The notes beneath the pieces were generated by a model that worked only from the letters and a program-made list of their open reading frames with translations, ran no database searches and was not told the origin of the DNA. A DNA stretch of 64,000 bases from Thermoflexales bacterium (GTDB lineage: Bacteria; Chloroflexota; Anaerolineae; B4-G1; DUEL01), in assembly GCA_014360895.1 (NCBI GenBank), contig JACIWQ010000001.1, positions 16,287 to 80,286 of the forward strand, given 5' to 3'. This document shows positions 3,434 through 46,799 of this stretch, piece after piece. The translations under genes and the position numbers were made by a program. Position 1 is the stretch's first letter, and the number at the start of each line of letters is the position of its first letter.

Positions 3434-3489
<56 letters not shown>

Positions 3490-3498
3490 GATTTGTGG

Positions 3499-4909: not shown

Positions 4910-5548
4910 CTACCGAGAGTAGTACTCCACGACCAGTTGCTCGTTGATCGGGATGTCCACATGCTCCCGCCTGGGCATTCCCAGGACCCGGGCGGAGAGG
5001 TCCGCCGCGTCCAGGGAGAGCCAATCGGGAACCCTCATCTCGTCCAGCATCTCGGCGCGTTCCTGGAAATACGGCCGCCGGCGGCTCCCCTCCCGCACGG
5101 CAATCCGGTCACCGGGCCGGACCAGATAGGACGGGATGGTAACCCGTCGGCCGTTGACGGTGAAGTGGCCATGCTGAACCAGTTGGCGGGCCTGGGCGCG
5201 CGAGTCGGCGAAGCCCAGCCGATAGACCACGTTATCCAGGCGGCGCTCCAGCAGGATGAGCAGATTCTCGCCGGTCAGGCCGGGCGTCCGCAGCGCCTCC
5301 CGGAAGTAGCGGCGAAACTGCCGCTCCAAGATGCCGTAAACCCGCTTGACTTTCTGCTTTTCCCGCAACTGGCGGAAGTAGTCCGTGGGCTGTCCCCGCC
5401 GGAAACGGGCAATCTGTCCGTGCTGTCCGGGCGGGTAATCCCGGCGCTCCAGGGCGCACTTGGGCGACATGCAGCGCGCGCCCTTCAGGAACAACTTCTG
5501 TCCTTCGCGACGACACAACCGACAAACCGGGCCTGTGTATCTGGCCAT
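4910..5548 (-). CDS. rpsD: 30S ribosomal protein S4 (zinc-finger form)
   Basis: [26 protein letters not shown]... S4 with N-terminal Cys cluster. Confidence 0.95.
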
Positions 5549-5977: not shown

Positions 5978-5994
5978 AGCTAACTCCGTAAAAA

Positions 5995-6029
5995 CGTGAA
6001 AAGTGAAACGTGAAACGTGAAACGTGAAG
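5995..6029. repeat. Tandem heptamer array (CGTGAAA) x5 in the rpsM-rpsK spacer
   Basis: cgtgaaa agtgaaa cgtgaaa cgtgaaa cgtgaag, preceded by an actccgta motif. Confidence 0.85.
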
Positions 6030-7353: not shown

Positions 7354-8136
7354 TCAAAGCCCTTTTGCCCAAATATGCCACGGCGTCAGGATTTCCGCCT
7401 CCCCGTCCCGGATCAGAAGGGTGTGTTCAAAGTAGGCCGTCAGTTTGCCGTCCACGGAGACGACCGTCCAGTGGTCGGGCAGGGTCCGTACCCGGTAGTC
7501 GCCCGCCAGGACCATAGTCTCTATGGCGACGGTCATTCCCGACCGCAACAGCGGCCCCCGCCCCGGCTCTCCGTGGTTGGGAATCTGCGGCGGCTCGTGC
7601 ATCTGCCGACCGATGCCGTGGCCGGTGTATTCCCGCACCACGTTGTAGCCCCGGGACTCCACGTAGTTCTGAATGGCGGCGGAGATGTCGCCGACGCGGT
7701 TTCCGGCCCGGGCCCGGGCGATCCCGGCGTAGAGAGCGCCCTCCGTCACCTCCAGCAACCGCCGGGCCTCCGGGCCCACGTCCCCCACCGGCAGGGTGAT
7801 GCCCGCATCGCCATGGTAGCCGTCGTAGATGGCCCCGACGTCTATGCTGATAATGTCCCCTTCTTTCAGGACGCGCGGGCCGGGAATCCCGTGGACCAGT
7901 TCCTCGTTGACCGAAGTGCAGATCGCAGCCGGGAACGGATGCGGACTGCCCGGCGGATAGCCCTTGAAGGACGGGATGCCACCCAGGCGTCGGATCAGTT
8001 CTTCCGCCTTCTGGTTCAACTCCGCCGTGGTGACGCCGGGCCTTACCCACTCCCGCATCCGGTCCAGGACCTCGGCGACGATGCGCCCGGCCCTGCGCAT
8101 TTTTTCAATCTCGCCTGCCGACTTCAGTTGAATCAT
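7354..8136 (-). CDS. map: Methionine aminopeptidase type I
   Basis: 260 aa with MetAP metal-ligand motifs (HGIG..., D..ISIDVG). Confidence 0.93.
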   Translation of the reverse strand: MIQLKSAGEIEKMRRAGRIVAEVLDRMREWVRPGVTTAELNQKAEELIRRLGGIPSFKGYPPGSPHPFPAAICTSVNEELVHGIPGPRVLKEGDIISIDVGAIYDGYHGDAGITLPVGDVGPEARRLLEVTEGALYAGIARARAGNRVGDISAAIQNYVESRGYNVVREYTGHGIGRQMHEPPQIPNHGEPGRGPLLRSGMTVAIETMVLAGDYRVRTLPDHWTVVSVDGKLTAYFEHTLLIRDGEAEILTPWHIWAKGL

Positions 8137-8137
8137 T

Positions 8138-8860
8138 TCACCGCAGAGAACGCGGAGAACGCAGAGATTCCCCCACCTCTCCCGCGCCCCCCACGGTCAG
8201 GGAGCCGCAGGCGCTCTCCACGGCCGCCCGCAGGTCGGCCTGGACGTCTTCTATGGACTGTTCGCCGTCTATCTCCACCAGCAGGCCGACCCGGCGGTAA
8301 TAGTCCACCAGCGGCGCCGTCTGCTCCTGATAGACCTTCAGACGGCGGCGGTGGGCCTCCTCGGTCTCGTCGGGACGCTGGTAGAGTTCGCCGCCGCAGG
8401 CATCGCACACCCCGGCCTTCTTCGGCGGATTGAACAGGGTATGGTAGACGGCCCCACAACTCCGGCAGGTCCACCGGCCCGCCAGACGGGCCAGGGCCAC
8501 CTCCTCCCGCACCCGGATGAAGGCCACCATATCCAGCGCGGTCCCGTTGCCCCGCAGGAGCCGCTCCAGCGCTTCCGCCTGCGCGACGGTGCGCGGGAAG
8601 CCGTCCAGGATGAAACCATTGGTGCAATCCGGGCGGGCAATCCGTTCGGCGACCATGCCGATGGTCACCTCATCGGGCACCAGGTCGCCCCGCTCCATGT
8701 AGGCCCGCGCCTGGCGGCCCAGGTCTGTTCCCTTATCCAGATGCTCCCGGAACAGGTCGCCGCTGGCGACATGCGGGACGCCCAGCGCCTGCGCCAGTTG
8801 CTCCGCCTGCGTCCCCTTGCCCGCTCCGGGCATGCCCAGAAGGACAATGCGACAGCCCAT
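8138..8860 (-). CDS. adk: Adenylate kinase (with Zn-lid CxxC...CxxC). The C-terminus reads through a 9-bp repeat.
   Basis: Start at MGCRIVLLGMPGAGKGTQ (P-loop). LID cysteines CRSCG...CDACG. The tail ...GESLRSPRSLR is encoded by the repeat at 8142-8168. Confidence 0.93.
   Translation of the reverse strand: MGCRIVLLGMPGAGKGTQAEQLAQALGVPHVASGDLFREHLDKGTDLGRQARAYMERGDLVPDEVTIGMVAERIARPDCTNGFILDGFPRTVAQAEALERLLRGNGTALDMVAFIRVREEVALARLAGRWTCRSCGAVYHTLFNPPKKAGVCDACGGELYQRPDETEEAHRRRLKVYQEQTAPLVDYYRRVGLLVEIDGEQSIEDVQADLRAAVESACGSLTVGGAGEVGESLRSPRSLR
8142..8168. repeat. 3 x 9-bp tandem repeat CGCAGAGAA/CGCGGAGAA/CGCAGAGAT. Member of the CGCAGAGAACGC element family.
   Basis: Shares the 14-mer ACCGCAGAGAACGC with 46698-46711. 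Its reverse complement resembles 17876-17907. Confidence 0.8.
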
Positions 8861-12480: not shown

Positions 12481-12548
12481 TGCCTGCTCCCTCGCCACCA
12501 GTCTATCCGTTTACCGGTCTACCAGTTTACCAAATTCCCAGATACCCC

Positions 12549-13085: not shown

Positions 13086-13118
13086 TCGCTCCTCCGTAGT
13101 CCGTGCTCCGTACTCCGT

Positions 13119-15551: not shown

Positions 15552-15609
15552 CAAGATGCAAGATGGCAAGATGCAAGATGGCAAGATGCAAGATGGCAAG
15601 ATGCAAGAG
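15552..15609. repeat. Tandem array (CAAGATGCAAGATGG, 15-bp unit = 7+8) x ~3.5 in the rplX-rplE spacer
   Basis: caagatg caagatgg repeated. Generates spurious ORFs in all frames (HLAILHLAIL, DARWQDARWQ, MARCKMARCK). Confidence 0.9.
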
Positions 15610-15933: not shown

Positions 15934-15991
15934 TCTTCACCTCACGAACTACGAAATACGGAGTACGGAGTGTTGCGTATTCCGTATTCCG

Positions 15992-16363
15992 TTAGAGCAC
16001 CTCTGGTGCCAGCGAAATGATTTTCATAAAGCCCTTATCCCGCAACTCCCGGGCGACGGGCCCGAAGATGCGGGTGCCGCGCGGGTTGACGCCCGTCGCG
16101 TCCAGCAGCACCGCGGCGTTGTCATCAAAGCGGATGGTGGAGCCGTCGGGGCGCCGGTACTCTTTGGCCGTGCGGACGATGACCGCTTTAACCACGTCCC
16201 CCTTCTTCACCGACGCGTTGGGTGTGGCCTGCTTGACCGTCGCCACGATGACGTCTCCGACGTACCCGTACCGCCGCTTGGAGCCGCCCATCACCCGAAT
16301 GCACAACAGTTCTTTCGCCCCGGTGTTATCCGCTACGGTCAAACGGGTCTCCTGCTGGATCAT
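15992..16363 (-). CDS. rplN: 50S ribosomal protein L14
   Basis: [18 protein letters not shown] canonical L14. Confidence 0.95.
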
Positions 16364-21890: not shown

Positions 21891-22040
21891 TCCTCCATGG
21901 GACTGTCAGCCCTGGGACAGGCTGCATCATCCCGGTGGTCAGGATGGAAGGAAACAAGAATACGAGGAGACAAGGATGCAAGGGGTAGAGGGGTGGCACG
22001 CTCCAACCCCTGCCTACTTGCCCACTTGTTTCCTTGTCTA

Positions 22041-22349
22041 CTACAACTTAATTTCTATGTCCACGCCTGCAGGCAGGTTGAGCCGCATCAGCGCATCTAT
22101 GGTCTTGTTATCCGGCTCCAGGACGTCTATCACCCGCTTGTGGGTCCGGATTTCAAAGTGCTCGTGGGAGTCCTTGTCAATGAAGGTGGACCGGCGCACG
22201 GTGAAGCGCTCTATCTGGGTCGGCAACGGGATAGGGCCGACCACGGTCGCTCCCGTGCGCTCGGCCGCCTCCACGATGCGCCGGGCGGACTCGTCCAACA
22301 CGCGATGATCGTACGCCTTCAGGCGGATACGGATTCTTTGCTTGGCCAT
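22041..22349 (-). CDS. rpsJ: 30S ribosomal protein S10
   Basis: Canonical S10. Confidence 0.95.
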
Positions 22350-33698: not shown

Positions 33699-33709
33699 AG
33701 AAACACAAA

Positions 33710-33788
33710 AGTACCAGGCACTTCCTCAGGCCCTGGGGGTCTCAGGAGAAAAGGTTTCGCTGAATCAACCGGGAATGTGCCTGGTACT
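33710..33788 (-). promoter_or_regulatory. Structured 5' leader of yceD-rpoD: perfect 12-bp inverted repeat AGTACCAGGCAC ... GTGCCTGGTACT enclosing ~55 nt
   Basis: Perfect IR between the predicted promoter (33826-33854) and the yceD start. Confidence 0.5.
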
Positions 33789-33825
33789 GAATCGTTCAAC
33801 CGCCTTTTGTGCTGGGTTTGCACAT

Positions 33826-33854
33826 ATTATAACAGAAAAGAAGGTGTTCGTCAA
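33826..33854 (-). promoter_or_regulatory. Sigma-70-type promoter for yceD-rpoD: -35 TTGACG, 17-bp spacer, -10 TATAAT
   Basis: Minus-strand sequence TTGACGaacaccttcttttctgtTATAAT. Confidence 0.55.
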
Positions 33855-33910
33855 GAGTTTTTGAGGCCAGTTTTGGGATTTTTCCGTCTTCTCAAGATTT
33901 ACGCACTGGG

Positions 33911-33995
33911 GAGATTGCTTCGGCCCGTGGGGGCCTCGCAATGACCTCCTACGCGCTCGCAGGGTCATTGCGAGCGGCAAAGCCGCGAAGCAATC
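33911..33995. repeat. REP-like nested palindrome GATTGCTTCG...CTCGCAATGAC...GTCATTGCGAGC...CGAAGCAATC
   Basis: Fully symmetric 85-bp element of the same family as 31630-31835. Confidence 0.85.
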
Positions 33996-34055
33996 TCCTC
34001 CTGTAAGCCAACTGCGGAACTCCTGCTCTTATTGAAATCCGGGAGGTCCGCCGGG

Positions 34056-34084
34056 TTGCCCGTTGGGGCATTTTCTGGTAATAT
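34056..34084 (+). promoter_or_regulatory. Candidate promoter for the ferredoxin-like gene: -35 TTGCCC, 17-bp spacer, -10 TAATAT
   Basis: Seen 44 nt upstream of the ATG at 34128. Confidence 0.35.
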
Positions 34085-34127
34085 ACAGGCGCGCCGGAAC
34101 AGTCCCATCTGTGCAAGGAGAACAGCC

Positions 34128-34529
34128 ATGAAAGTCCTCTCCTATCATGCTGAACTCTGCGTTGGCTGCCACATCTGCGAGGAGGTCTGCGCGGAGACCT
34201 GGTTCAAGACCCCCGACGCGGCGAAGTCCAGCATCGTGATTCGGGATGAGGGTTCGGGTCCCCTCCAGGCCACGTTCTGCGTGCAGTGCGGCGAATGTAT
34301 CGCCGTCTGCCCGACTCAGGCCCTGTATCGGGATAAACAGGGCATTGTCCGGTTGCGCAAGCAACTCTGTGTAGGATGCCTCTCCTGCGTGGGCTTCTGC
34401 CCGTACCTGGCGATGTTCTACCACCCGGACCTGCTGGAGCCGTTCAAGTGCGTGGCCTGCGGGCAGTGTGTGAAAGAGTGCCCCGCGGACGCGCTGGCCC
34501 TGGTGGAGATGCCCACTCCCACGCCGTAG
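34128..34529 (+). CDS. 4Fe-4S dicluster ferredoxin-domain protein
   Basis: Start at MKVLSYH with an AAGGAG RBS. Multiple CxxCxxCxxxCP motifs. Confidence 0.8.
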   Translation: MKVLSYHAELCVGCHICEEVCAETWFKTPDAAKSSIVIRDEGSGPLQATFCVQCGECIAVCPTQALYRDKQGIVRLRKQLCVGCLSCVGFCPYLAMFYHPDLLEPFKCVACGQCVKECPADALALVEMPTPTP

Positions 34530-34649
34530 ACATCGGCCGGTATCCCCCTCCACATTCCCGGAAGGGCGGGGGGAGAAAAACGAAACGGGGGGTGGAGCGA
34601 CGGCAACACCGTTGCTCCATCCCCCGTTTTTCTCAGGGGTGAAGACCCC

Positions 34650-36899
34650 TTACTGAACGCGAATCCGGCTCAGCAGGAGAAAGTCCCGACCGTCCTCCAG
34701 CCGAAGGCGCTCCCCCGTATCCGGTCGGTAGAGGCCGATTTCCACTTCGTAGAAGCCCGGCGGCGTCTCCGGCTTCACCCGCAGCGTGTAAGTCTCCCGG
34801 TAAACCTCTCCGGCCCGCCACTGGGATGTGGGTGGGGTCGGCGGACGGTCTTCCTGTCCCCAGATGGTCTGCGGCGGCTCCAGGATGTGGGTGAAGACGG
34901 TGTAGTCATGCTCCGTGGGGCCGAGGGCCCGCCAATAGAGGGTCAACACCACCGTCTCGCCGGGGCGCACCCGCCGGGGCACCATCTCGTACCCCACCAG
35001 TTCTATCCGGTCACCGAAGCGGTAAGAGACGGGGTTGGGGTACGGGCCGGGGCGGGGCCGAAGGGCCAGGTCCCCGAAAGAAACGTAGCGCCGGTCGTCC
35101 GGCTGCCCGGACACGGGCATCCGCTCCCAGGTGCGCAGGTCGTAGAACCCCACCCTCAGGGAAAGGCGCGCCGAAGCGACGGCGGTCTCCGGCACCCGTA
35201 GCCGGAAGACCTCCGCCCAGCGCGCCCCCGGTTGCAGTTGGGTTGCCCGGACCAGTCCCTGGCGGGGGTAACGGTCGTCCTGGGCCAGGATAATCTCCAG
35301 GTCGTCCACCAGATGGACAAAGAGGCTCCAATCCCGCGTGGGGGGACGCAGGGCTTCCAGATAGAGGGTCAGGTCTACGGTCTCCCCGGGCTCCAGGGAG
35401 GAAGGGCGGAGGCTGTAGCCCAGCAGGCGGAATTCGTCGCCGAAGGTCGCCCCCAGAGGATTGGGAACGGCCGCCGGGACGGGGAGGTCGGGGGGACGGT
35501 AGGCCGGGGCGATCCAGAGGACGGGCGCCCGCAGGGCCAGGGCTCCCAGGAAGAGGGCCGGCAGGGCCTGCAGGGCCCGTCCGATACGGCGGGATCGCCC
35601 AATGGCCAGGGCTATCTGCTCCCACCCGACCCACAGGCCCAGGGAGATGGGGCCGATGGCGGGGAACATCAGCCGCCCCTGGGAGGCCGGGGTCTGCGCG
35701 GTCCAGCGCAGGAAAGCGGCGAAGAGCACCACGACGTAGCCCAGGAGCCCCAGGCCGATGGCCCATTCTTCCCCCCAGGTGCGGGTGCGAAGCGCGCGGG
35801 CCAGCCCCCGGCCCACTCCCCACAGAAGCCCCAGGGCCGCCAGCGCGGTCCAGGCGTCCAGGACTCGGTAGACCCACACCGGCATCAGGACGTTCATCCA
35901 GCCGAAGACGCCCCAGAAGGACCAGCGGAAGCCCTGGAACTCCCGCAGGAGGTCGGCGGGAGTGGCCCGGCGCCGCCCCACGATGTCCAGCATCACGTTG
36001 AGGCCGAAGGGGTCGTGGTAGAGGGTCCAGTTGCGCCAGAACCACCAGCCGCAGAGAGCCAGAGCGACCCCGAAGGTCAGGAGGAAACCACGAAGACACG
36101 AAGACACGAAGGAAAATCTCTTTAAACTTCGTGTCTTTGCGTCTTTGTGGTAAACCCCCACCAGCGTCAGGGCGGCCAGGGGCCAGAGGGTCAGGCCGCT
36201 GAGTTTCGCCAGCGCCGCCACGCCCAACATAACCCCCAGCAGGAAGGCGCGCGGCCAGGAGACCCCCCGGCGCCAGATAACGGCCAGAACCCAGAGGCCG
36301 ACGGCGGTGGCGGTGTTGACCAGCGCGTCGTTGTTCACCGACGCGGTGACGAAAAGGAACATCGGGTTGACGGCGACCAACAGGCCGCTCCCCAAAGCCC
36401 AGCCGGGACGGTCAGGGAAGAGGAGGCGCACCCCGTTCACCGTCGCCAGGACCGTCAGCAGGCCCAGCGCTACCGAGGCCAGCCGCCAGAGATGAAGGGT
36501 AAGGACGGCGCCGTGCCAGGGGAAGGCTTCGGCGGGGCCATGTAGCACCTGGTTCCGATTGGCAATACGGGCAGCGTCGCCGGAGGAGGCGTGAGGGTTG
36601 GGGAGATAGACAGCATCCAGGTCATCCAGGGGGAGGCGAAAGAGGTGGGTGAACCCGGCCAGAAGGGCGTAGTAGAGAGGTGGCTGGCTGCCTTCCTGCC
36701 GCCAGGGCGTCTCTTCGCCGGGGCGCTGTACGGGCAGCCCCTCTCCCTGGGCCAGCCGGACCGCCATGTTGACATGATAGGTTTCGTCTGGGCATTCAAA
36801 GAGGGGATTGATCACACTGTGGAGGAGAGCCAGAATTAGGTAAAAGAACAGAAGCCAGGTTCGCCCCGAGTCAAAGAATCGGCAGGAGAGGCATCTCAT
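34650..36899 (-). CDS. GT-C glycosyltransferase, PMT/ArnT-like (GT39/GT83), paralog 1 of 3. Has two C-terminal beta-rich repeat domains.
   Basis: N-terminal loop DE motif (LFECPDETYH), 10+ TM helices, C-terminal duplicated ~110-aa domain. ATGA overlap with paralog 2. Confidence 0.8.
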   Translation of the reverse strand: MRCLSCRFFDSGRTWLLFFYLILALLHSVINPLFECPDETYHVNMAVRLAQGEGLPVQRPGEETPWRQEGSQPPLYYALLAGFTHLFRLPLDDLDAVYLPNPHASSGDAARIANRNQVLHGPAEAFPWHGAVLTLHLWRLASVALGLLTVLATVNGVRLLFPDRPGWALGSGLLVAVNPMFLFVTASVNNDALVNTATAVGLWVLAVIWRRGVSWPRAFLLGVMLGVAALAKLSGLTLWPLAALTLVGVYHKDAKTRSLKRFSFVSSCLRGFLLTFGVALALCGWWFWRNWTLYHDPFGLNVMLDIVGRRRATPADLLREFQGFRWSFWGVFGWMNVLMPVWVYRVLDAWTALAALGLLWGVGRGLARALRTRTWGEEWAIGLGLLGYVVVLFAAFLRWTAQTPASQGRLMFPAIGPISLGLWVGWEQIALAIGRSRRIGRALQALPALFLGALALRAPVLWIAPAYRPPDLPVPAAVPNPLGATFGDEFRLLGYSLRPSSLEPGETVDLTLYLEALRPPTRDWSLFVHLVDDLEIILAQDDRYPRQGLVRATQLQPGARWAEVFRLRVPETAVASARLSLRVGFYDLRTWERMPVSGQPDDRRYVSFGDLALRPRPGPYPNPVSYRFGDRIELVGYEMVPRRVRPGETVVLTLYWRALGPTEHDYTVFTHILEPPQTIWGQEDRPPTPPTSQWRAGEVYRETYTLRVKPETPPGFYEVEIGLYRPDTGERLRLEDGRDFLLLSRIRVQ
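36088..36150. repeat. 63-bp palindromic element (CACGAAGA x3 / inverted TCTTTGCG arm) embedded in-frame in GT-C paralog 1
   Basis: ccacgaagacacgaagacacgaagg-loop-cttcgtgtctttgcgtctttgtgg. AT-richer than the flanks. Encodes VYHKDAKTRSLKRFSFVSSCLRGF, which is absent from paralogs 2 and 3. Confidence 0.75.
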
Positions 36900-38743
36900 C
36901 TGGTCCCTCCAGGGAAGGCGGCTGGGATAGAGAGATGGAGCGTACCGGAATCATCCCTCCAAATCTGGGCCAGCAGGACCGCATCGTTGGGATACCTCTG
37001 ACCTGTCCCATCCCAGGCAGGCAGCCGTTCCATCGTGGGCAAGAAATAGAGCCCCGCCACGATGTCACCGGAAAAAGGCGAGTCTGGTGGCGGGAGCGGC
37101 AGGGTAAGCCGGTCTATGAAAATCTGGTCCTTCCGCCACACCGAAGTCGGATATGTTCCATATCCCGGATAGGTGTCCAATTGGGTTAGAATCACAGGAT
37201 GTCCTTGTTGCAGGGTCTCCAGGTGAATGAAGACACTGAAGTTCTGGTCCGTTTCTCTCAATGTACGCCAGTAGAAAGTTATGGCAAGAGCAGGACATTC
37301 GGGTAATTCTGTCTGTTCCAGGTCATAACCGATAAGTTCAAACTGCCCATCACCGAAAATCGCTCCCAGCCGGTTAGTTGGGATGGTTTCCAGATGTTTG
37401 GTGAGTGTTGGGCGAGGGTATACGGGGGAGAGATAATGGGCCGGAGCAATAACCGCATAAATTCCCAGCAGTGCTGCAAGGATACCCGGAATGATTGGGC
37501 GACGGAATATTTCGGTCAAGCCAACAGCCAGTGTGGCTCCAACGGTAATGGCAGCCGGAAAGAGCAGGCGTCCGCCTCCCATGAAAATGGCAGTTTGAGA
37601 GGTCAGGCGTAGCAATCCCGCAAACACGATAAGAAACCAGCCCCACAAGAGGAAGAAGAAAGGGCGAAGATGCTTCTGGCGCGCCAGTGCCAGTATTAAG
37701 CCGATAACTCCCGTTATGCAAAGCAAACCCAGAACCGCATAGATCGGGGGCTCTGCGAAAAGAATTCCGCCGGGGCTGAAATCCAGCCAGTAGGCTTTCC
37801 ACAGGAAAGTCAGTAAAGACCACAGGTCTCTCCACGTGAAAGGCGTGGTGCGGGGTCCGAGTAGCACAGGCAATAGGTTGGTAGCAAAGGGGTCGCCATA
37901 CAGGGTCCAATTGCGCCAGAACCACCAGCCGTCCACGATGAACACAATCAGTCCTGCGATCCCGGCCCAGAACAGGGGTCGGAAGTCGCGAATTTTCCGG
38001 GAGTGCCCAAGAGCGAGAAAGCCCCAAGGAACCAGTAAGCCCAGACCGCTCAGTTTGGCAAGAACAGCCAGTGCTATAGTGGCGCCGAAGATGATGCTCT
38101 GGCGAGGTGACAACCCATGTTGGATTATGTATCCTAATTGCCATAGTCCAATGTGGCATATTGCTACAGCCATTATGTCGTTGCTGAAAGAGGTCGCGAT
38201 AAACACAAACTGGGGGTTTAGCCCCACCATTGCCATAACCAGCATTGCTACCGGCCAATCAAGAAAAAGACGAGATAGAAAGTAAATAGCTATCAGCGCC
38301 ATGGCCCCACAGGTGAGCGAGACCAAGCGGCCAGTAAAAAAGATCGGCATATCGGGAAGAGCGATATAAGATGGTGTTATAGGATTCCGATTACCTATAG
38401 GGGTACCCAAGAAATGAGGATTAACTACAGGGGTTACCCCCTCATCGCGCAAGCCGAGAAGAGAGACAATCCCTGCAACTGTAGCATAGTAAAGTGGAGG
38501 TTGGTGACCTTCTTTCTCGACAGGCGTATGAGCATTCACCCCAACCTTAGTGGCATCTATAACAGGGAGTCCCTCTCCCGATACCAAGTGAAGGGTATAC
38601 GCATAATGATATGCTTCATCCGGTTTAACAAACAGCGGGTTTTCCAGAGCATAATATGTCCCCACTGTTAGGAATCCGCACAGGAAAAGCATGACCGCCA
38701 CTTTTTCCATCCAGCCTGGACTCTCTGCAGAAAGCCCTCGCAT
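36896..38743 (-). CDS. GT-C glycosyltransferase, PMT/ArnT-like, paralog 2 of 3 (one C-terminal repeat domain, lower GC)
   Basis: DE motif LFVKPDEAYHY. Start placed at MRGLSAE so that it does not overlap paralog 3. Confidence 0.75.
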   Translation of the reverse strand: MRGLSAESPGWMEKVAVMLFLCGFLTVGTYYALENPLFVKPDEAYHYAYTLHLVSGEGLPVIDATKVGVNAHTPVEKEGHQPPLYYATVAGIVSLLGLRDEGVTPVVNPHFLGTPIGNRNPITPSYIALPDMPIFFTGRLVSLTCGAMALIAIYFLSRLFLDWPVAMLVMAMVGLNPQFVFIATSFSNDIMAVAICHIGLWQLGYIIQHGLSPRQSIIFGATIALAVLAKLSGLGLLVPWGFLALGHSRKIRDFRPLFWAGIAGLIVFIVDGWWFWRNWTLYGDPFATNLLPVLLGPRTTPFTWRDLWSLLTFLWKAYWLDFSPGGILFAEPPIYAVLGLLCITGVIGLILALARQKHLRPFFFLLWGWFLIVFAGLLRLTSQTAIFMGGGRLLFPAAITVGATLAVGLTEIFRRPIIPGILAALLGIYAVIAPAHYLSPVYPRPTLTKHLETIPTNRLGAIFGDGQFELIGYDLEQTELPECPALAITFYWRTLRETDQNFSVFIHLETLQQGHPVILTQLDTYPGYGTYPTSVWRKDQIFIDRLTLPLPPPDSPFSGDIVAGLYFLPTMERLPAWDGTGQRYPNDAVLLAQIWRDDSGTLHLSIPAAFPGGTR

Positions 38744-38753
38744 ATTGTCCTCC

Positions 38754-41042
38754 CTACTGGCTATTGCAGCGTCTTTCCGGCTGCACTTCTGGAAACGCCA
38801 CCACATCCTCCGCCAGACGCTGGCCCGTTCCGTCATACGCCGGAATCCGCTCCAGCGTCTCCGGATGATACATCCCCACCCGCAGGATCAGCGGCCCCTC
38901 CGGCCGCTTCCCCAACGGAAGCCAATGGGTATCCAGCACCCGCTCCCCTCTCCGCCACCACGACGTCGGATAATCCCCGCCTCGCGGCGGCCCGTCATGC
39001 TGCGAGACCAGATTCCCCTCCCCATCCAGCAGGTGTACAAAGACGGTATAATCCTCCCTCACCTCCTCCTCTGCCCGCCAGTGAAGTGTCACCGTCAAAT
39101 ATTCCTGGCCTCCTTCCTGCTCCCACGACAGACCATACCCGTCCAGCCGGATGGTATCCCCCAGACGGTAATCGGTAGGGCAAGAAGGAGGCGGCGGCGA
39201 ATGGGCCGGGAGCAGGCGCCAGGGACCCAGGGCCACCATATCGCCGGATTGATCCTGGAGGGGAATGCGACCGGTTTGCCCGTCGGTCAGGCCGATACGG
39301 AGCCAGTAGAGGCCCGGAGCCGGAGCCCAATCGGGGATGGAAAGGATGTGGGTCTGGCGGACAATCTCCCCTGGCTTCCAGAGATCGCTGGGATAGAGGG
39401 TGCCACCCAGCCAGGTGTCTTCTCCGGCCACATACCGGGTCGGGTCCTGCGGGCCGAACTGAACCCATATCCGGTAGCGCTCCGTCAGAGAGATCGGTGT
39501 ATACCAGTAAAGGGTCAGCGTTACCGGATGTCCGGATTTCATCGGGCCCCGAAAAATCTCATATCCGAGGAGTTGCAGGCCGTTCTGAAAGTTTACGTTT
39601 ACCGACTGAACGCCCCTCGGGATTTGCTGGACGGGACGGGTCAGGGTGAAAGCCGGGCGGATGTAATGCCAGGGTATATAGGCATTGAATGCCAGGGCAA
39701 CTCCAGCGATGGCCCAGAGCACCAGGTGGGGGGCTTTCCAGCGAGTATATTGGGACAGCCCATATGCGGTGAGAATGGCGACCGGCGCGATGGTGGGAAA
39801 GAGCAACCGACCGTAGGGAGCGCCTGTAGCCAGGGCCCAGCGCACCAGCGCGATCGCGTTCAGCCCGAAAGCCAGCGCGAACAGGAATAGAGCACACCGG
39901 GTGGGGTGGGGCAGGCCCCCCCAGGAACCATCCGGGCGAAGCGCGCATAGTAATCCGATCCCGGCCAGGCCCATAAGCGTCGCGATGCCCCAGTAGACGG
40001 GCCTGTCCACCAGGATCAGTCCCCAGCCGAAGGCCGCCCAGTAGGTTTGGAAAACGGTCCACGCTTCCCTCAGGCCGAAGTGGGCCAGGGGAATTTGCCC
40101 TGCAAAGTGCGGACCAAATCCCAGCGGGTCACCGTAGAGCATGAGTCCCCGTAGATACCACCAGAGGCTCGGAGCCAGCGCAGCCACCAGGAAGAGACCG
40201 GCATCCCGAAGGCGCTTTTCCCATGAAGCCTGCTGGCAAATCGTGGCCAGACTTCCGATGGGCAGGAGCAGCAGTCCGCTCTGTTTGGTCAGCAGCGCCA
40301 GTCCGGCAATGCCCCCCAGGACGGCCCACTGACGTCCTGTGCCTCTCTGTATGCAGGATGGGATGTGGGCAAAAAACAGGGTGCAGAGGGCAATCAGCAG
40401 GTTGTCGTTGGTCACCCCCGCGGATAGAGCAACGAATTGGGGATTCAGGGCGACTATAGCGGCTGCTCCCAGGGCCATCCAGGGGCGATTCGGCCAGAGA
40501 CGACATGCCAGGGTGTGGGTGGAGAAGATGGTGATAGCACCGAAGCCCAGCGAAAGCATGCGCAGGAGATAAAGGGCTGGAACCGTATCGCCTTTTGGTC
40601 TCCAGACCAGGCGAACGTAGAAGTTCTTGTTCCAGGGGTCAGGGCCTGCGGTGGGAGCCCAACCTATCACCCAGTTGGGGTTGGGCACCAGCAGAGCGGG
40701 CAGGTCGCGCATCTCTGTCCAGGAAGTCAACAGGGCGCCCACCGCGTAGTAAAGGGGAGGCGCATAGAAAACTTTTGCCTCGGCGTATTCCAGCGACCGG
40801 GCCACATCCGCGCCGGTCAGCAGCCGATGTTGGGGCATCGCTCGGGGGGGCAGCGCGTGGTGGACAGTGATGTACCGGATGGTGTTGAGGTGGAAAGGTT
40901 CATCTGGGGACTCAAAAGGGGGGATGGTCAGGGCGAAGAGCACTCCCAGGGCCAGGAAGATCCCGATCAGCAGATGAACACTCTTTCGGGCAGGGGGGCG
41001 TCGGATCCACGCGACAGGGACTCTCTCCATACTGCTTTTCAT
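38754..41042 (-). CDS. GT-C glycosyltransferase, PMT/ArnT-like, paralog 3 of 3 (two C-terminal repeat domains)
   Basis: DE motif PFESPDEPFH. ATGA overlap with the upstream GT4 gene. Confidence 0.8.
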   Translation of the reverse strand: MKSSMERVPVAWIRRPPARKSVHLLIGIFLALGVLFALTIPPFESPDEPFHLNTIRYITVHHALPPRAMPQHRLLTGADVARSLEYAEAKVFYAPPLYYAVGALLTSWTEMRDLPALLVPNPNWVIGWAPTAGPDPWNKNFYVRLVWRPKGDTVPALYLLRMLSLGFGAITIFSTHTLACRLWPNRPWMALGAAAIVALNPQFVALSAGVTNDNLLIALCTLFFAHIPSCIQRGTGRQWAVLGGIAGLALLTKQSGLLLLPIGSLATICQQASWEKRLRDAGLFLVAALAPSLWWYLRGLMLYGDPLGFGPHFAGQIPLAHFGLREAWTVFQTYWAAFGWGLILVDRPVYWGIATLMGLAGIGLLCALRPDGSWGGLPHPTRCALFLFALAFGLNAIALVRWALATGAPYGRLLFPTIAPVAILTAYGLSQYTRWKAPHLVLWAIAGVALAFNAYIPWHYIRPAFTLTRPVQQIPRGVQSVNVNFQNGLQLLGYEIFRGPMKSGHPVTLTLYWYTPISLTERYRIWVQFGPQDPTRYVAGEDTWLGGTLYPSDLWKPGEIVRQTHILSIPDWAPAPGLYWLRIGLTDGQTGRIPLQDQSGDMVALGPWRLLPAHSPPPPSCPTDYRLGDTIRLDGYGLSWEQEGGQEYLTVTLHWRAEEEVREDYTVFVHLLDGEGNLVSQHDGPPRGGDYPTSWWRRGERVLDTHWLPLGKRPEGPLILRVGMYHPETLERIPAYDGTGQRLAEDVVAFPEVQPERRCNSQ

Positions 41043-42223
41043 CCTGATATCCAGTGGATCAGAAACGCCGCTGTCTGGCGGGCGATGCGGTCCCAGGAGA
41101 AGTCGGCAGCCAGGGCCCGCGCGCCCTCCTCCAGCCGGGCCCGCAGGCCCGGGTCGCGCCAGAGCCGCAGGACCGCCTCCGCCAACGCGCCCGCATCCCG
41201 GGGCGGCGCCAGGAGCATATTCTCCCCGTCCCGCACCTCCGGCAACGGCACCGCCGGACGAGTGGTGACAATGGCCCGCCCGTGGGCCAGGCAGGCGTGC
41301 AGCGTCCCCCGCCGGAAGGAGACGCCGTCCCGGTAGGGCAGGACGCAGACATCCGTCGCCAGCAGGCCCGCCGAGACCGACAGGGGGTCGGTGTAGCCGG
41401 TCCAGTGGACCCGCTCCGTCAGCCCCAGGTCGGCGATGAGGCCGTCTATGAAGGCGGCGTAGGCCCGGTTGGTGGGGTCAGAGGTGCCCACCCGCCCGCC
41501 GACCATCAGCAGGTGGGCCGGAACGCCCCGCTCCACCAGCATGCCCAGCGCCCGGATCAATTCCTCGCCGCCCTTGCTCTCGTTGAGGAAGCCGAAGTAG
41601 CCCAGGAAGAGGTCATCGGGGCGAACGCCCCAGCGGGCCCGTTCAGCGTCCCGGTCGTAGTTCGGAGGCGGGGTCGGCGGGATATTGCTCCCGATGGGGA
41701 TCACGGCCAGGCGGTCCCGGGGAATCTCCCCCTCCAGCCGGAGGTAGTCCTCGTGGTTGGTGACGATGACGCCGTCGGCGCGGCGGGCCAGCATCCGGAC
41801 GACGCGCCAGCGCAGGGGTCCGGCCTTGGGGAAGAGATAGGGGACCCGTAGGTCGTGGAAGGTCACAACGACCGGCGGGCGCGCCAGAGGCGAGGGAAGG
41901 AAGTGGACCGCCGGGTGCATCCCGTAGGCGGCGGCCTGGTACTGGAGGTTCAGGACGTCCAGGCGCGCCTCCCGGGCCACCCGCAGGACCTCCCGCCAGC
42001 AACCCCAGCGCCAGGAGGGGACAGAGCGGTGGACGGGGAGGCTATACCGTGCTTCGTATTCCGTTTTGCGGGTGGGGCCGGTGATGACGTGGACGTCGTG
42101 ACCCAGCGCGGCCAGCGCCTCCGCCAGCCGGAGGGTGAAGTCCCCCACGCCGCCCTCATCGGGGGGAAATTCGCCGGTGACCAATCCGATGCGCATAGTG
42201 ACTCCCTGGAGGGCGCGCTTCAC
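41039..42223 (-). CDS. Glycosyltransferase family 4 (GT-B, retaining)
   Basis: Glyco_trans_1-like C-terminal half (E..GG..E.. motifs). Confidence 0.8.
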   Translation of the reverse strand: MKRALQGVTMRIGLVTGEFPPDEGGVGDFTLRLAEALAALGHDVHVITGPTRKTEYEARYSLPVHRSVPSWRWGCWREVLRVAREARLDVLNLQYQAAAYGMHPAVHFLPSPLARPPVVVTFHDLRVPYLFPKAGPLRWRVVRMLARRADGVIVTNHEDYLRLEGEIPRDRLAVIPIGSNIPPTPPPNYDRDAERARWGVRPDDLFLGYFGFLNESKGGEELIRALGMLVERGVPAHLLMVGGRVGTSDPTNRAYAAFIDGLIADLGLTERVHWTGYTDPLSVSAGLLATDVCVLPYRDGVSFRRGTLHACLAHGRAIVTTRPAVPLPEVRDGENMLLAPPRDAGALAEAVLRLWRDPGLRARLEEGARALAADFSWDRIARQTAAFLIHWISG

Positions 42224-43140
42224 CGCACCATGGCGCGCACCACCTGCCGGTATGCCCGGATGCGCTCTGCCCGCAGGGCCCGCTTATGGCCCAGGAGCCA
42301 CTTGGCCCCTTCTACGCCCATCTGCCAGAGATAGTTGCCCAGAATGACCGTCCGCAGAATCCCTGCCGCGAGCGGACCGTGGTACTTGCGGAAATAGCGG
42401 ATTTTGCTGGTCTGGAAGTGAACATGGCGGGCCGGGAGGACCTGCTCGCTGCTCTTGCCCTCGTGGTGAATCACCCGCGCGGTGGGGAGATAGACGACCC
42501 GCCAGCCGGCCTCCCGAAACCGACGGCACCAGTCCAGTTCCTCCGAGTACATGAAAAACCCCTCGTCCAGCGGCCCCACCTGCTCTACCGCCTCCCGCCG
42601 GGCCATCAGCGCCGCGCCGGTCACCCAGTCCACATCCTGAATTTCGTCGTCGGGGCGGTCCAGGATGTAGTAGTGCGTCAGCAGGCGACGGGGGGCGTAG
42701 GGCTGGAGCCAGGTGGACTCAAAGAGAGCCGTTGTCAGAGTGGGGAAGCGGCGGCGAGAGGATTGCACCGTCCCGTCGGGGTTCAGGAGTTGCGGGCCGA
42801 CGACGCCGACATCGGGGTGGGCGTCGGCGAAGGCGACCATCCGCTCCAGGGCATCCCCCACCACCTCGGTATCCGGGTTCAGCAGGAGGACGTAGCGGCC
42901 CCGGGCGACGGCCAGTCCCTGGTTGTTGGCGGCGGTGAAGCCCCGGTTGTCGGCGTTGGCAATGAGGTGCACCTGGGGAAACTCCGCCCGGACCATCTCC
43001 GCGCTCCCGTCGGTAGAGCCGTTATCCACGACGATGACCTCCAGTGAGCAGGCAGGCTGGCTGGCGAGGACGGAGTGAAGACAGCGCCGGAGCAGGTCCC
43101 GGACGTTCCAGTTGACGATGAGGACAGAGAGGTCGGGCAT
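42220..43140 (-). CDS. Glycosyltransferase family 2
   Basis: LSVLIVNWN...DNGSTDGS...NPD...D GT2 motifs. Start at MPDLSV. The ORF track's upstream extension is a translation of the 8-bp repeat. Confidence 0.85.
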   Translation of the reverse strand: MPDLSVLIVNWNVRDLLRRCLHSVLASQPACSLEVIVVDNGSTDGSAEMVRAEFPQVHLIANADNRGFTAANNQGLAVARGRYVLLLNPDTEVVGDALERMVAFADAHPDVGVVGPQLLNPDGTVQSSRRRFPTLTTALFESTWLQPYAPRRLLTHYYILDRPDDEIQDVDWVTGAALMARREAVEQVGPLDEGFFMYSEELDWCRRFREAGWRVVYLPTARVIHHEGKSSEQVLPARHVHFQTSKIRYFRKYHGPLAAGILRTVILGNYLWQMGVEGAKWLLGHKRALRAERIRAYRQVVRAMVR

Positions 43141-43142
43141 GA

Positions 43143-43177
43143 ATGAGCAAATGACAGAATGACAGAATGACAGAATG
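43143..43177. repeat. Tandem 8-bp repeat (ATGACAGA) x3-4 in the 5' leader of the GT2 gene
   Basis: atgagcaa atgacaga atgacaga atgacaga, immediately upstream of the GT2 start codon. Confidence 0.85.
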
Positions 43178-43184
43178 GCCGATG

Positions 43185-46673: not shown

Positions 46674-46697
46674 CGTTACCTCCCTTTTTCGGGTTCA

Positions 46698-46799
46698 ACC
46701 GCAGAGAACGCAAAGGACACAGAGAAAATTCCCATAATCACCTTTGCGTCCTTTGCGATGAGAAAATCCGCGTTTATCCGCGTCCATCCGCGTCCATCC
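46698..46799. repeat. Composite repeat: a palindromic CGCAGAGAACGCAAAGGACACAGAG...CCTTTGCGTCCTTTGCG element followed by (TCCGCGTnnA) x3
   Basis: Shares ACCGCAGAGAACGC with 8142, tccgcgtttatc with 17876, and tttgcgtc(c)tttg with 36131-36148. Overlaps the uvrA stop. Confidence 0.75.

Follow-up and report, generated by a model that had tools for sequence, protein, structure and literature searches.

An in-frame palindromic element of tandem octamers in a Thermoflexales glycosyltransferase gene and its kinship with repeats that flank GxxExxY genes

The DNA analysed here, referred to as the window, is a stretch of 64,000 nt from a Thermoflexales bacterium (assembly GCA_014360895.1, contig JACIWQ010000001.1, positions 16,287 to 80,286 of the forward strand), and coordinates without a locus name are those of the window. 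It carries a gene for a GT-C glycosyltransferase that contains, in frame, a small palindrome built of tandem octamers (positions 36083-36155). We take this palindrome to be an old member of a small-palindrome family, one that lacks a gene and was inserted in the codons of an enzyme loop in a shared ancestor, and give this reading a probability of about 0.6. In unrelated metagenome contigs, arms of the same family flank GxxExxY genes, whose products have a PD-(D/E)XK nuclease fold. A small palindromic repeat carried in frame is of a known kind, and the arrangement of arms around GxxExxY genes is the more novel by-product of the analysis.

Structure of the Palindrome

The element and its host gene comprise the following features. 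The arm profile cited here and below is an nhmmer profile trained solely on arms from either side of GxxExxY genes, taken from unrelated metagenome contigs.

34650-36899, minus strand: host gene (paralog 1), 749-aa GT-C glycosyltransferase of the DUF2142/PMT_2 type, assigned by Pfam, AlphaFold and Foldseek
36083-36155, minus strand: whole element with its degenerate termini, defined by sequence, translation and a match of the arm profile at 36155-36126 (minus strand, E 2.3e-4)
36088-36111: arm 1, (CACGAAGA)x2.9 on the plus strand with 100% unit matches, conserved in the orthologs of loci L001 and L003
36112-36126: loop of 15 nt, AT-rich, GAAAATCTCTTTAAA on the plus strand
36127-36151: arm 2, inverted copy of arm 1 with 3 transitions

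Read on the mRNA strand, positions 36083-36155 have the order GTTTACC-AC(AAAGACGC)(AAAGACAC)GAAG - loop - (CTTCGTGT)x3-GG-TTTCC and encode residues V249-F272 (VYHKDAKTRSLKRFSFVSSCLRGF). The two arms (36087-36111 and 36127-36151) are 25 nt long, 88% complementary and 15 nt apart. On the same strand arm 1 is the A-free sequence CTTCGTGTCTTCGTGTCTTCGTGG, coding for FVSSCLRG, and arm 2 is the T-free sequence CCACAAAGACGCAAAGACACGAAG, made of the units CACAAAGA-CGCAAAGA-CACGAAG and coding for HKDAKTR. One terminus, GTTTACC, is a variant also found in loci L261 and L268; the other is GGAAACC. The core measures 63 nt and the element with its termini up to 73 nt (21 and 24 coded residues, respectively). 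Its GC content is 0.44, compared to 0.69 in the 1-kb flanks. Folding gives −41.7 kcal/mol for the mRNA strand (z −7.6) and −43.0 kcal/mol for the plus strand (z −9.7). A search of the 64 kb at up to 3 mismatches found the 24-mer and the inverted copy only (0 expected from 100 shuffles).

The initial annotation had described an AT-richer palindrome of 63 bp with a tandem heptamer arm that adds 21 residues to the protein. The arms, the loop and the low GC content are confirmed, with an octamer as the repeated unit. The peptide quoted for the 21 residues has 24, those encoded by 36083-36155, and the loop is longer than its equivalents by merely 9-13 residues (see below). The location in frame within a GT-C gene is as annotated, the open reading frame (ORF) 34650-36899 (749 aa) being unbroken.

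Misassembly classically arises at palindromes and short repeats, and the sequence belongs to a metagenome-assembled genome (MAG), which raises the question of a spurious palindrome generated by short-read assembly. A contig from a second assembler (Logan, SRR11866724) yields the same DNA, though probably from the same reads, with 0 mismatches over 9.2 kb (33968-43179). The ORF is intact, and homologous segments were recovered from samples and assemblies independent of this one (JGI 3300041911, SRR25937770, GCA_964508565.1, ERZ1669417 and five NCBI MAGs). Given the agreement of the second assembler and the independent samples we reject this explanation, which is barely credible.

Host Protein and Its Paralogs

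The host protein is 100% identical to MBC7225667.1 from a Thermoflexales MAG and matches DUF2142 in Pfam (E 1.4e-11). Its AlphaFold model, built on 62 homologs, has a mean predicted local distance difference test score (pLDDT) of 94.6 and places two beta-sandwich domains after the membrane part. A Foldseek search with the membrane part retrieved Pmt4, ALG9, ArnT and AglB, all of them GT-C enzymes. The 62 homologs all have E35, D38 and E39 of the first external loop, and the host gene therefore looks functional.

Residues 249-272, coded by the element, are distributed in the model over a helix (233-256), a turn (257-260) and a second helix (261-294). Residues 250-271 are modelled as extensions of these two helices with a pLDDT of 82-87, compared to 96-98 alongside. 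In the predicted structure its translation product forms a basic helix-turn-helix that lengthens both helices. The turn probably faces the cytoplasm, as suggested by the helix count from the basic amino terminus and by the positive-inside rule applied to the K/R-rich turn.

The two genes upstream of the host gene are PMT_2 according to Pfam:

36896-38836, minus strand: paralog 2, PMT_2, without the element; equivalent loop ~10 aa shorter
38754-41042, minus strand: paralog 3, PMT_2/DUF2142, without the element; equivalent loop ~12 aa shorter

The alignment of the three proteins bears out the annotated absence of the element at the equivalent position of paralogs 2 and 3. The three GT-C genes are arranged in tandem (34650-41042), with a start/stop overlap at 36896-36899. 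Related genomes vary upstream of paralog 1, where 0, 1 or 2 additional GT-C genes are found.

Orthologs and Age of the Copy

A homologous segment is present at the same codons in 3 of the ~45 full-length orthologs: that of the window, P0002 (YHRDTKTHNFVPSCLRGL; loci L001 and L002), where it is kept in 6/6 cluster members, and P0003 (YRKDRKPQTPKTSFVSSCLQGE; loci L003 and L004). The remaining ~40 orthologs lack it, as do both paralogs, and their loop is 9-13 residues shorter. The arm coding for FVSSCLRG is well conserved in all three carriers, and the loop and the other arm have drifted in P0002 and P0003. The strength of the hairpin falls from the window (z −7.6) to L001 (z −4.2) and L003 (z −0.2). 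No compensatory changes were found in the stems of L001 and L003. It follows that the pairing has not been conserved and that the copy is an old one. The initial annotation held that orthologs carrying the same segment in non-repetitive DNA would speak against a mobile element. The decayed copies of two lineages come part of the way to that state, but they point to age and not to non-membership in the family.

The hairpin might instead have been retained by the host as a translational pause that aids membrane insertion, as an RNase III site that adjusts the level of the mRNA or for a useful basic loop of the enzyme. Both strands fold very stably, the pairing of the window copy is far above what the divergence between the carriers predicts, the FVSSCLRG arm is kept in all three and the segment is modelled as ordered helix. 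Nevertheless the pairing weakens in L001 and is gone in L003 with no compensation, ~40 orthologs as well as the two paralogs do without the segment, and the conservation of the one arm is explained by its coding for the start of a transmembrane helix. Selection by the host is a quite unlikely account of the palindrome.

The net gain at the site is 27-39 nt (9-13 aa), compared to 24 residues coded by the element, and without the 63 nt the two hydrophobic helices would run into each other, no polar turn being left. Therefore ~12-15 ancestral loop codons were replaced. The insertion of 63 bp implied in the initial annotation holds insofar as most orthologs lack the segment, but it was not a simple one. 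The loop codons of the insert-free orthologs have no precursor of the repeat. The neighbour-joining tree of the orthologs (~82-85% identity; 200 bootstraps) is a star, with no clade of the three carriers and bootstrap values below 50% throughout the group. In L005, a relative without the intragenic element, a CTTCGTG-unit array (TTTCGTGCCCTTCGTGTCCTTCGCC, positions 5330-5362 of that locus) lies just downstream of the orthologous GT-C gene.

A Dispersed Family of Tandem-Unit Hairpins

We define the family operationally by arms of 2-4 tandem units of 7-10 nt (C-R-C-n-R-A-G(R)), inverted, with termini (T)TCACC...GGTGA(A). The arm profile detects the element at 36155-36126 (minus strand), including the GTTTACC terminus, with E 2.3e-4 and its other arm (36087-36115) with E 0.15. 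The orthologous copy in L001 is matched with E 0.006 and 0.036. Within the window, to which counts of family members and the scan for GxxExxY genes in the host genome are limited, three other members were found:

778-863: intergenic, gene-less hairpin with the canonical TTTCACC terminus, GTTTCACCGCCGAGACGCAGAACACGCAAAGAC...CTCGGCGTCTCCGCGGCGAG (nhmmer 778-809, E 2.4e-4; 857-835, E 6e-3)
8133-8168: solo arm, TTTCACCGCAGAGAACGCGGAGAACGCAGAGA (nhmmer 8136-8168, E 1.1e-8)
46695-46760: intergenic hairpin of 9-nt units, TTCAACCGCAGAGAACGCAAAGGACACAGAG...CCTTTGCGTCCTTTGCGATGAG (nhmmer 46698-46729, E 3.2e-5; other arm, 0.18)

Three of the four members are intergenic and one (36083-36155) is intragenic. 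The solo arm borders on the start codon of a gene on the minus strand, which begins MIQLKSAGEIEKMR. Directly beside the hairpin at 46695-46760 lies a (ATCCGCGTCC)x3.4 array (46766-46799). The motif that had been reported as common to the element and positions 46741-46757 is present, and the arm profile matches both sites. No near-identical copies of the element exist in the window, and near-identical family sets are present in other contigs (L172 and L154). Several short tandem arrays of the window also have the C-R-C-R-R-A-G type of unit.

The degenerate three-unit pattern CRCRAAGRCRCRAAGRCRCRAAG was scanned over two collections, genome_contigs (one genome per species, 596 Gb) and viral_contigs. 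It matched at least 120 loci in genome_contigs, where ~4 are expected by chance according to our own arithmetic with uniform composition, which was carried out for this collection only, and at least 120 loci in viral_contigs. The hosts among the matches listed include Acidobacteriota, Chloroflexota (with a Thermoflexus MAG), Cyanobacteria, Planctomycetota, Bacteroidota, Verrucomicrobiota and Alpha-, Beta-, Gamma- and Deltaproteobacteria. Arrays of the CRCRAAGR type often occur as inverted pairs, whose inner distances range from 12 to ~220 nt, with a second group at ~300-530 nt and a few above 1 kb. Elements with canonical termini are likewise bimodal in length (65-220 nt or 439-614 nt). The ORF caller used for the context of the arrays was crude and too noisy for intragenic counts. 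In its gene calls the arrays have no strand bias (30 vs 30) and lie between convergent genes in 32 cases vs 13 between divergent ones.

The window and 18 hairpin loci searched against Rfam at the gathering threshold, and the element region searched with E up to 10, returned only tRNA, rRNA and chance microRNA-like matches. The literature searches covered open-access papers; they yielded no occurrence of ten literal arm strings of the family, nothing relevant on tandem repeats of Thermoflexus and, for short tandemly repeated repetitive (STRR) and heptanucleotide sequences, only papers on frameshifting. Arrays of ATCCGCG and ACGCAGAT, similar to the (ATCCGCGTCC)x3.4 array of the window, accompany CGCAAAG arrays in L016 (Prochloron), and similar ones surround the GxxExxY gene of a viral contig (L330).

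Association with GxxExxY Genes

In the longer inverted pairs the inner segment is repeatedly an ORF of ~115-135 aa that matches TIGR04256 (GxxExxY protein) and PF13366 (PDDEXK_3) with E values of 1e-37 to 1e-44, and in which the D...ExK catalytic residues are invariant. An array lies within 200 nt of 10 of the 11 GxxExxY ORFs in the 2.04 Mb of loci examined, and the arrays of L057 abut the ORF. GxxExxY is the sole protein family that recurs beside arrays across unrelated loci. The GxxExxY genes of L023, L026, L043, L057, L081, L106 and L329 belong, together with the metagenome loci described next, to a set that is usually bracketed by such arms.

The association was also tested in the reciprocal direction. 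Eighty metagenome GxxExxY loci (L249-L328) were picked by protein motif only, being those most similar to one array-flanked query, and 75 had enough flank. Flanking inverted repeats with a score of at least 14 are found at 49 of these 75 genes (65%), compared to 0/75 in the shuffled control (best of 20 shuffles per locus). They consist of tandem units, start with (T)TCACC and end with GGTGA(A). The unit varies from locus to locus (CACAGAGG, CGCAAAGT, CAGTGAGG, CACGGAAG, CGCCGAGA, CACGAAGR), and the similarity of arms is 0.80 within a locus vs 0.48 between loci, a value as high being reached in 0/2000 permutations. CACGAAG/CACAAAG units, as in the window element, directly flank the GxxExxY genes of L271, L300 and L329.

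GxxExxY genes occur at 14 loci of viral_contigs, 2 of them close relatives. Phages are not supported as the source of the nuclease gene, GxxExxY being rare in viral contigs though arrays are common there. In a published superfamily survey PF13366 appears as a family of unknown function with multiple transfers between divisions; the only other mention met in the open-access papers was incidental. No solved structure of a GxxExxY protein was found by sequence, and no description of the association with the arms was found in Rfam or in the open-access literature.

These data bear on an origin of the palindrome in place, by slippage that made the octamers and template switching that made the inverted copy, with the likeness to the family reflecting a genome-wide tendency to form arrays. 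Many arrays of the window have unrelated units (GATGCGT x8, AAACGTG x5, CAAGATG x8), each family member of the window has its own variant of the unit, the net gain of 9-13 residues is far below the 24 coded and no target-site duplication is seen, all of which suits such a process. It leaves unexplained that the element has the units of the family and a variant of its terminus (GTTTACC), recognised with E 2.3e-4 by a profile from unrelated metagenome loci. Slippage in one loop would not reproduce a unit type and termini that recur across phyla and around GxxExxY genes, and the loops of the insert-free orthologs have no repeat precursor. We hold growth in place to be unlikely, and arrival by insertion would better account for the element.

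Tolerance within Coding Sequence

On the coding strand one arm lacks T and the other lacks A; therefore no TAA, TAG or TGA can be formed in any frame of either arm. The 15-nt loop is the only part of the element capable of holding a stop codon and is open in the mRNA-strand frames 0 and 2. The element as a whole is open in 4 of 6 frames.

The initial annotation had proposed that elements of this type can land in coding sequence without destroying the ORF, and a second in-frame copy of the same class agrees with this:

L092, 1669-1740 (Sphingomonadales MAG, JAYVGQ010000066.1): in-frame hairpin in truB (TruB_N domain), CTTTGCGT/CGCAAAGA units

This hairpin encodes SLCVFASLRETEKDLFAQRRKDAKD, and its net gain is ~14 residues relative to Mycobacterium tuberculosis TruB, again less than the 24 coded. 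It is the only real intragenic case among ten long ORFs with arrays that were checked. In MltA (L013) the array lies upstream of the domain, and the eight further ORFs have no domain match over the array (seven without a Pfam match and one with distant TPR repeats).

Proposed Origin of the Element

In the scheme that we favour for the palindrome, full-length members of the family (about 440-610 nt) would carry one GxxExxY gene of ~120 codons (TIGR04256/PF13366, PD-(D/E)XK fold) between their arms. Short members (65-220 nt) would consist of two arms and a loop only, like the window element, which would then be a gene-less derivative of such a nuclease cassette. In a common ancestor of this and at least two further Thermoflexales lineages, the copy would have landed in the codons for the turn that joins two transmembrane helices on the cytoplasmic side, taking the place of some 12-15 codons of the loop. 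It could survive within the ORF because its arms are free of stops, its loop is open in frame and the net change of length is a multiple of three. It was presumably fixed as harmless in a cytoplasmic turn and would now be decaying except where an arm encodes the start of a helix. The nuclease or some other enzyme may have mobilised it. More speculatively, the PD-(D/E)XK protein might cut the hairpin or cruciform of its own arms, and the arms might pair in host transcripts such that a cassette within an operon does little harm.

Several points weigh against this reading. The left terminus of the element (GGAAACC) has 3 mismatches to TTCACC, and its arm reaches only E 0.15. The net gain at the site is not what a simple insertion predicts. 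No clean empty site was recovered; in the ortholog tree a single gain, a gain followed by loss and a transfer by recombination are indistinguishable. At 54 family elements that have canonical termini, direct repeats of the kind expected from target-site duplication are no commoner than by chance. The four members in the window are diverged in unit sequence with no sign of recent activity, and neither the window nor the Thermoflexales loci retrieved contain a GxxExxY ORF. As to the link with the nuclease gene, the 65% of genes with flanking repeats may hold for one subfamily only, since the sample lies near one array-flanked query, and matching arms could reflect how arms are made and not selection for pairing. 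A classical transposon is disfavoured by the lack of a target-site duplication (no direct repeat flanks the window element), of near-identical copies in the window and of a nuclease gene in the 64 kb. Of the mobile miniature-element family suggested in the initial annotation, the dispersed family is upheld by the profile matches; mobility is suggested by the distribution, with no target-site duplication accompanying it.

It is possible, though we put it forward tentatively and would not bet on it, that the arm-bracketed GxxExxY genes are undescribed selfish cassettes of ~0.5 kb spread across phyla, with a nuclease acting on the hairpin or cruciform of its own arms, and with hairpins lacking the gene, solitary arms and in-frame loop insertions like the present one, which greatly outnumber the cassettes, as non-autonomous offspring. 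As regards the GT-C gene by itself, the result is of modest interest: a repeat has been preserved like a fossil in a protein loop, as known from Rickettsia. The wider pattern weighs more: a hairpin of 8-base units found across many phyla and in contigs of the viral collection, closely tied to a very common small nuclease-fold protein. Should the link between arms and nuclease be causal, PF13366/GxxExxY would gain a role, and there would be an explanation for many so far unexplained tandem repeats between the genes of Chloroflexota, Acidobacteriota, Cyanobacteria and other groups. The stop-free arms would then amount to a simple rule by which selfish DNA enters genes and adds segments to proteins.

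Comparison with Known Repeat Systems

The STRR heptamers of Cyanobacteria are short intergenic sequences of tandem 7-8-nt units, some of which form hairpins. They resemble the present family in these tandem short units, and Cyanobacteria are among its hosts. The published STRR units differ in sequence from those of the window family, and we know of no link of STRRs to a flanked nuclease gene or to insertion in frame. The intervening sequences of 23S rRNA comprise a small ORF bracketed by inverted repeats and sit in rRNA helices, from which RNase III excises them. They share with the arm-bracketed genes an ORF between inverted repeats that can pair into a long stem once transcribed with the host. 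Such a stem would let the insert be excised at the RNA level and leave the host molecule largely unharmed. The window element differs in lying in an mRNA and in having its inserted codons translated, with nothing showing RNA excision.

In its outcome the element behaves like the Rickettsia palindromic elements (RPEs). These palindromic repeats lie in frame in unrelated protein genes and add a peptide segment without destroying the protein; they are ~150 bp long and form ten families in Rickettsia, each encoding a conserved peptide (PMC10969869). The window element and the truB case have the same in-frame outcome. The element differs in its length (63-73 nt), in its Chloroflexota host, in its tandem 8-nt units and in having relatives in many phyla that flank a nuclease gene. 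Only the in-frame behaviour is common to both; the comparison was made by description and no sequence relationship is expected.

Repetitive extragenic palindromic (REP) sequences occur as singlets and as doublets (REPINs); the latter are non-autonomous pairs of short inverted repeats with a spacer that form a hairpin in single-stranded DNA or RNA, with compensatory changes in the arms (PMC3116915, which also mentions small dispersed repeats). The family described here shares the inverted short-repeat doublet with hairpin, the occurrence of singlets beside doublets, the non-autonomous copies, the compensatory changes between arms and the link to a single small enzyme gene that has these repeats on its flanks. 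The window palindrome could then be a REPIN-type element moved in trans by a REP-associated tyrosine transposase (RAYT, Y1/HUH), with GxxExxY as mere cargo or neighbour. The inverted pair with its spacer hairpin, the singlets and the lack of target-site duplications fit the description of REPINs (PMC3116915), and the excess of arrays between convergent over divergent genes (32 vs 13 in the crude gene calls) is in line with it. However, the gene found here codes for a PD-(D/E)XK-fold GxxExxY protein and not for a Y1/HUH transposase. No RAYT turned up beside the arrays, although no search was aimed at RAYTs, and GxxExxY alone recurs there. Furthermore REPs are described as lineage-specific and extragenic, whereas the units and termini of the arrays are common across phyla, their arms are internally tandem-repetitive and the window element is located within the ORF 34650-36899. 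We consider a REPIN-type mobilisation improbable.

Transposable elements of the miniature inverted-repeat type (MITEs) resemble the insertion of a gene-less family member that we prefer: both are short, lack genes, have terminal inverted repeats and longer gene-carrying relatives, and are bimodal in length. The family differs from MITEs by the lack of a target-site duplication, of a DDE transposase and of a near-identical multi-copy set in the window; the partner gene corresponding to that of a MITE codes for a nuclease-fold protein.

Other Repeats and Conserved Structures in the Window

Six other short tandem arrays lie between co-directional genes at 3434-3492, 5992-6028, 12497-12532, 13092-13118, 15552-15608 and 43141-43177 (GATGCGT x8, AAACGTG x5, ACCAGTCT x4.5, CTCCGTA x4, CAAGATG x8 and GAATGACA x4.6, respectively). 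These spacer arrays often adjoin start codons, and most are unmatched by the profile of TTCACC arms. Two intergenic hairpins (15951-15992 and 21948-22042) have arms of tandem units, TACGGAG/CGTATTC and AAGGAnAC with its complement, and are likewise unmatched by the arm profile.

Upstream of a yceD-like gene (33700-34030, minus strand) a conserved promoter-like sequence, CTTGACGAACGCCTTCTTTTCTGTTATAAT, is followed by a conserved leader of ~130 nt, which has no match in Rfam at the gathering threshold. The leader has a long stem (GTACCAGGCAC...GTGCCTGGTAC) and is common to five genomes, including the equivalents in L001, L005, L006 and L007. The GT-C gene and the ferredoxin gene converge on a hairpin (34583-34629) that resembles a bidirectional terminator; its stem is kept with a different sequence in the orthologous loci, which suggests compensatory changes.

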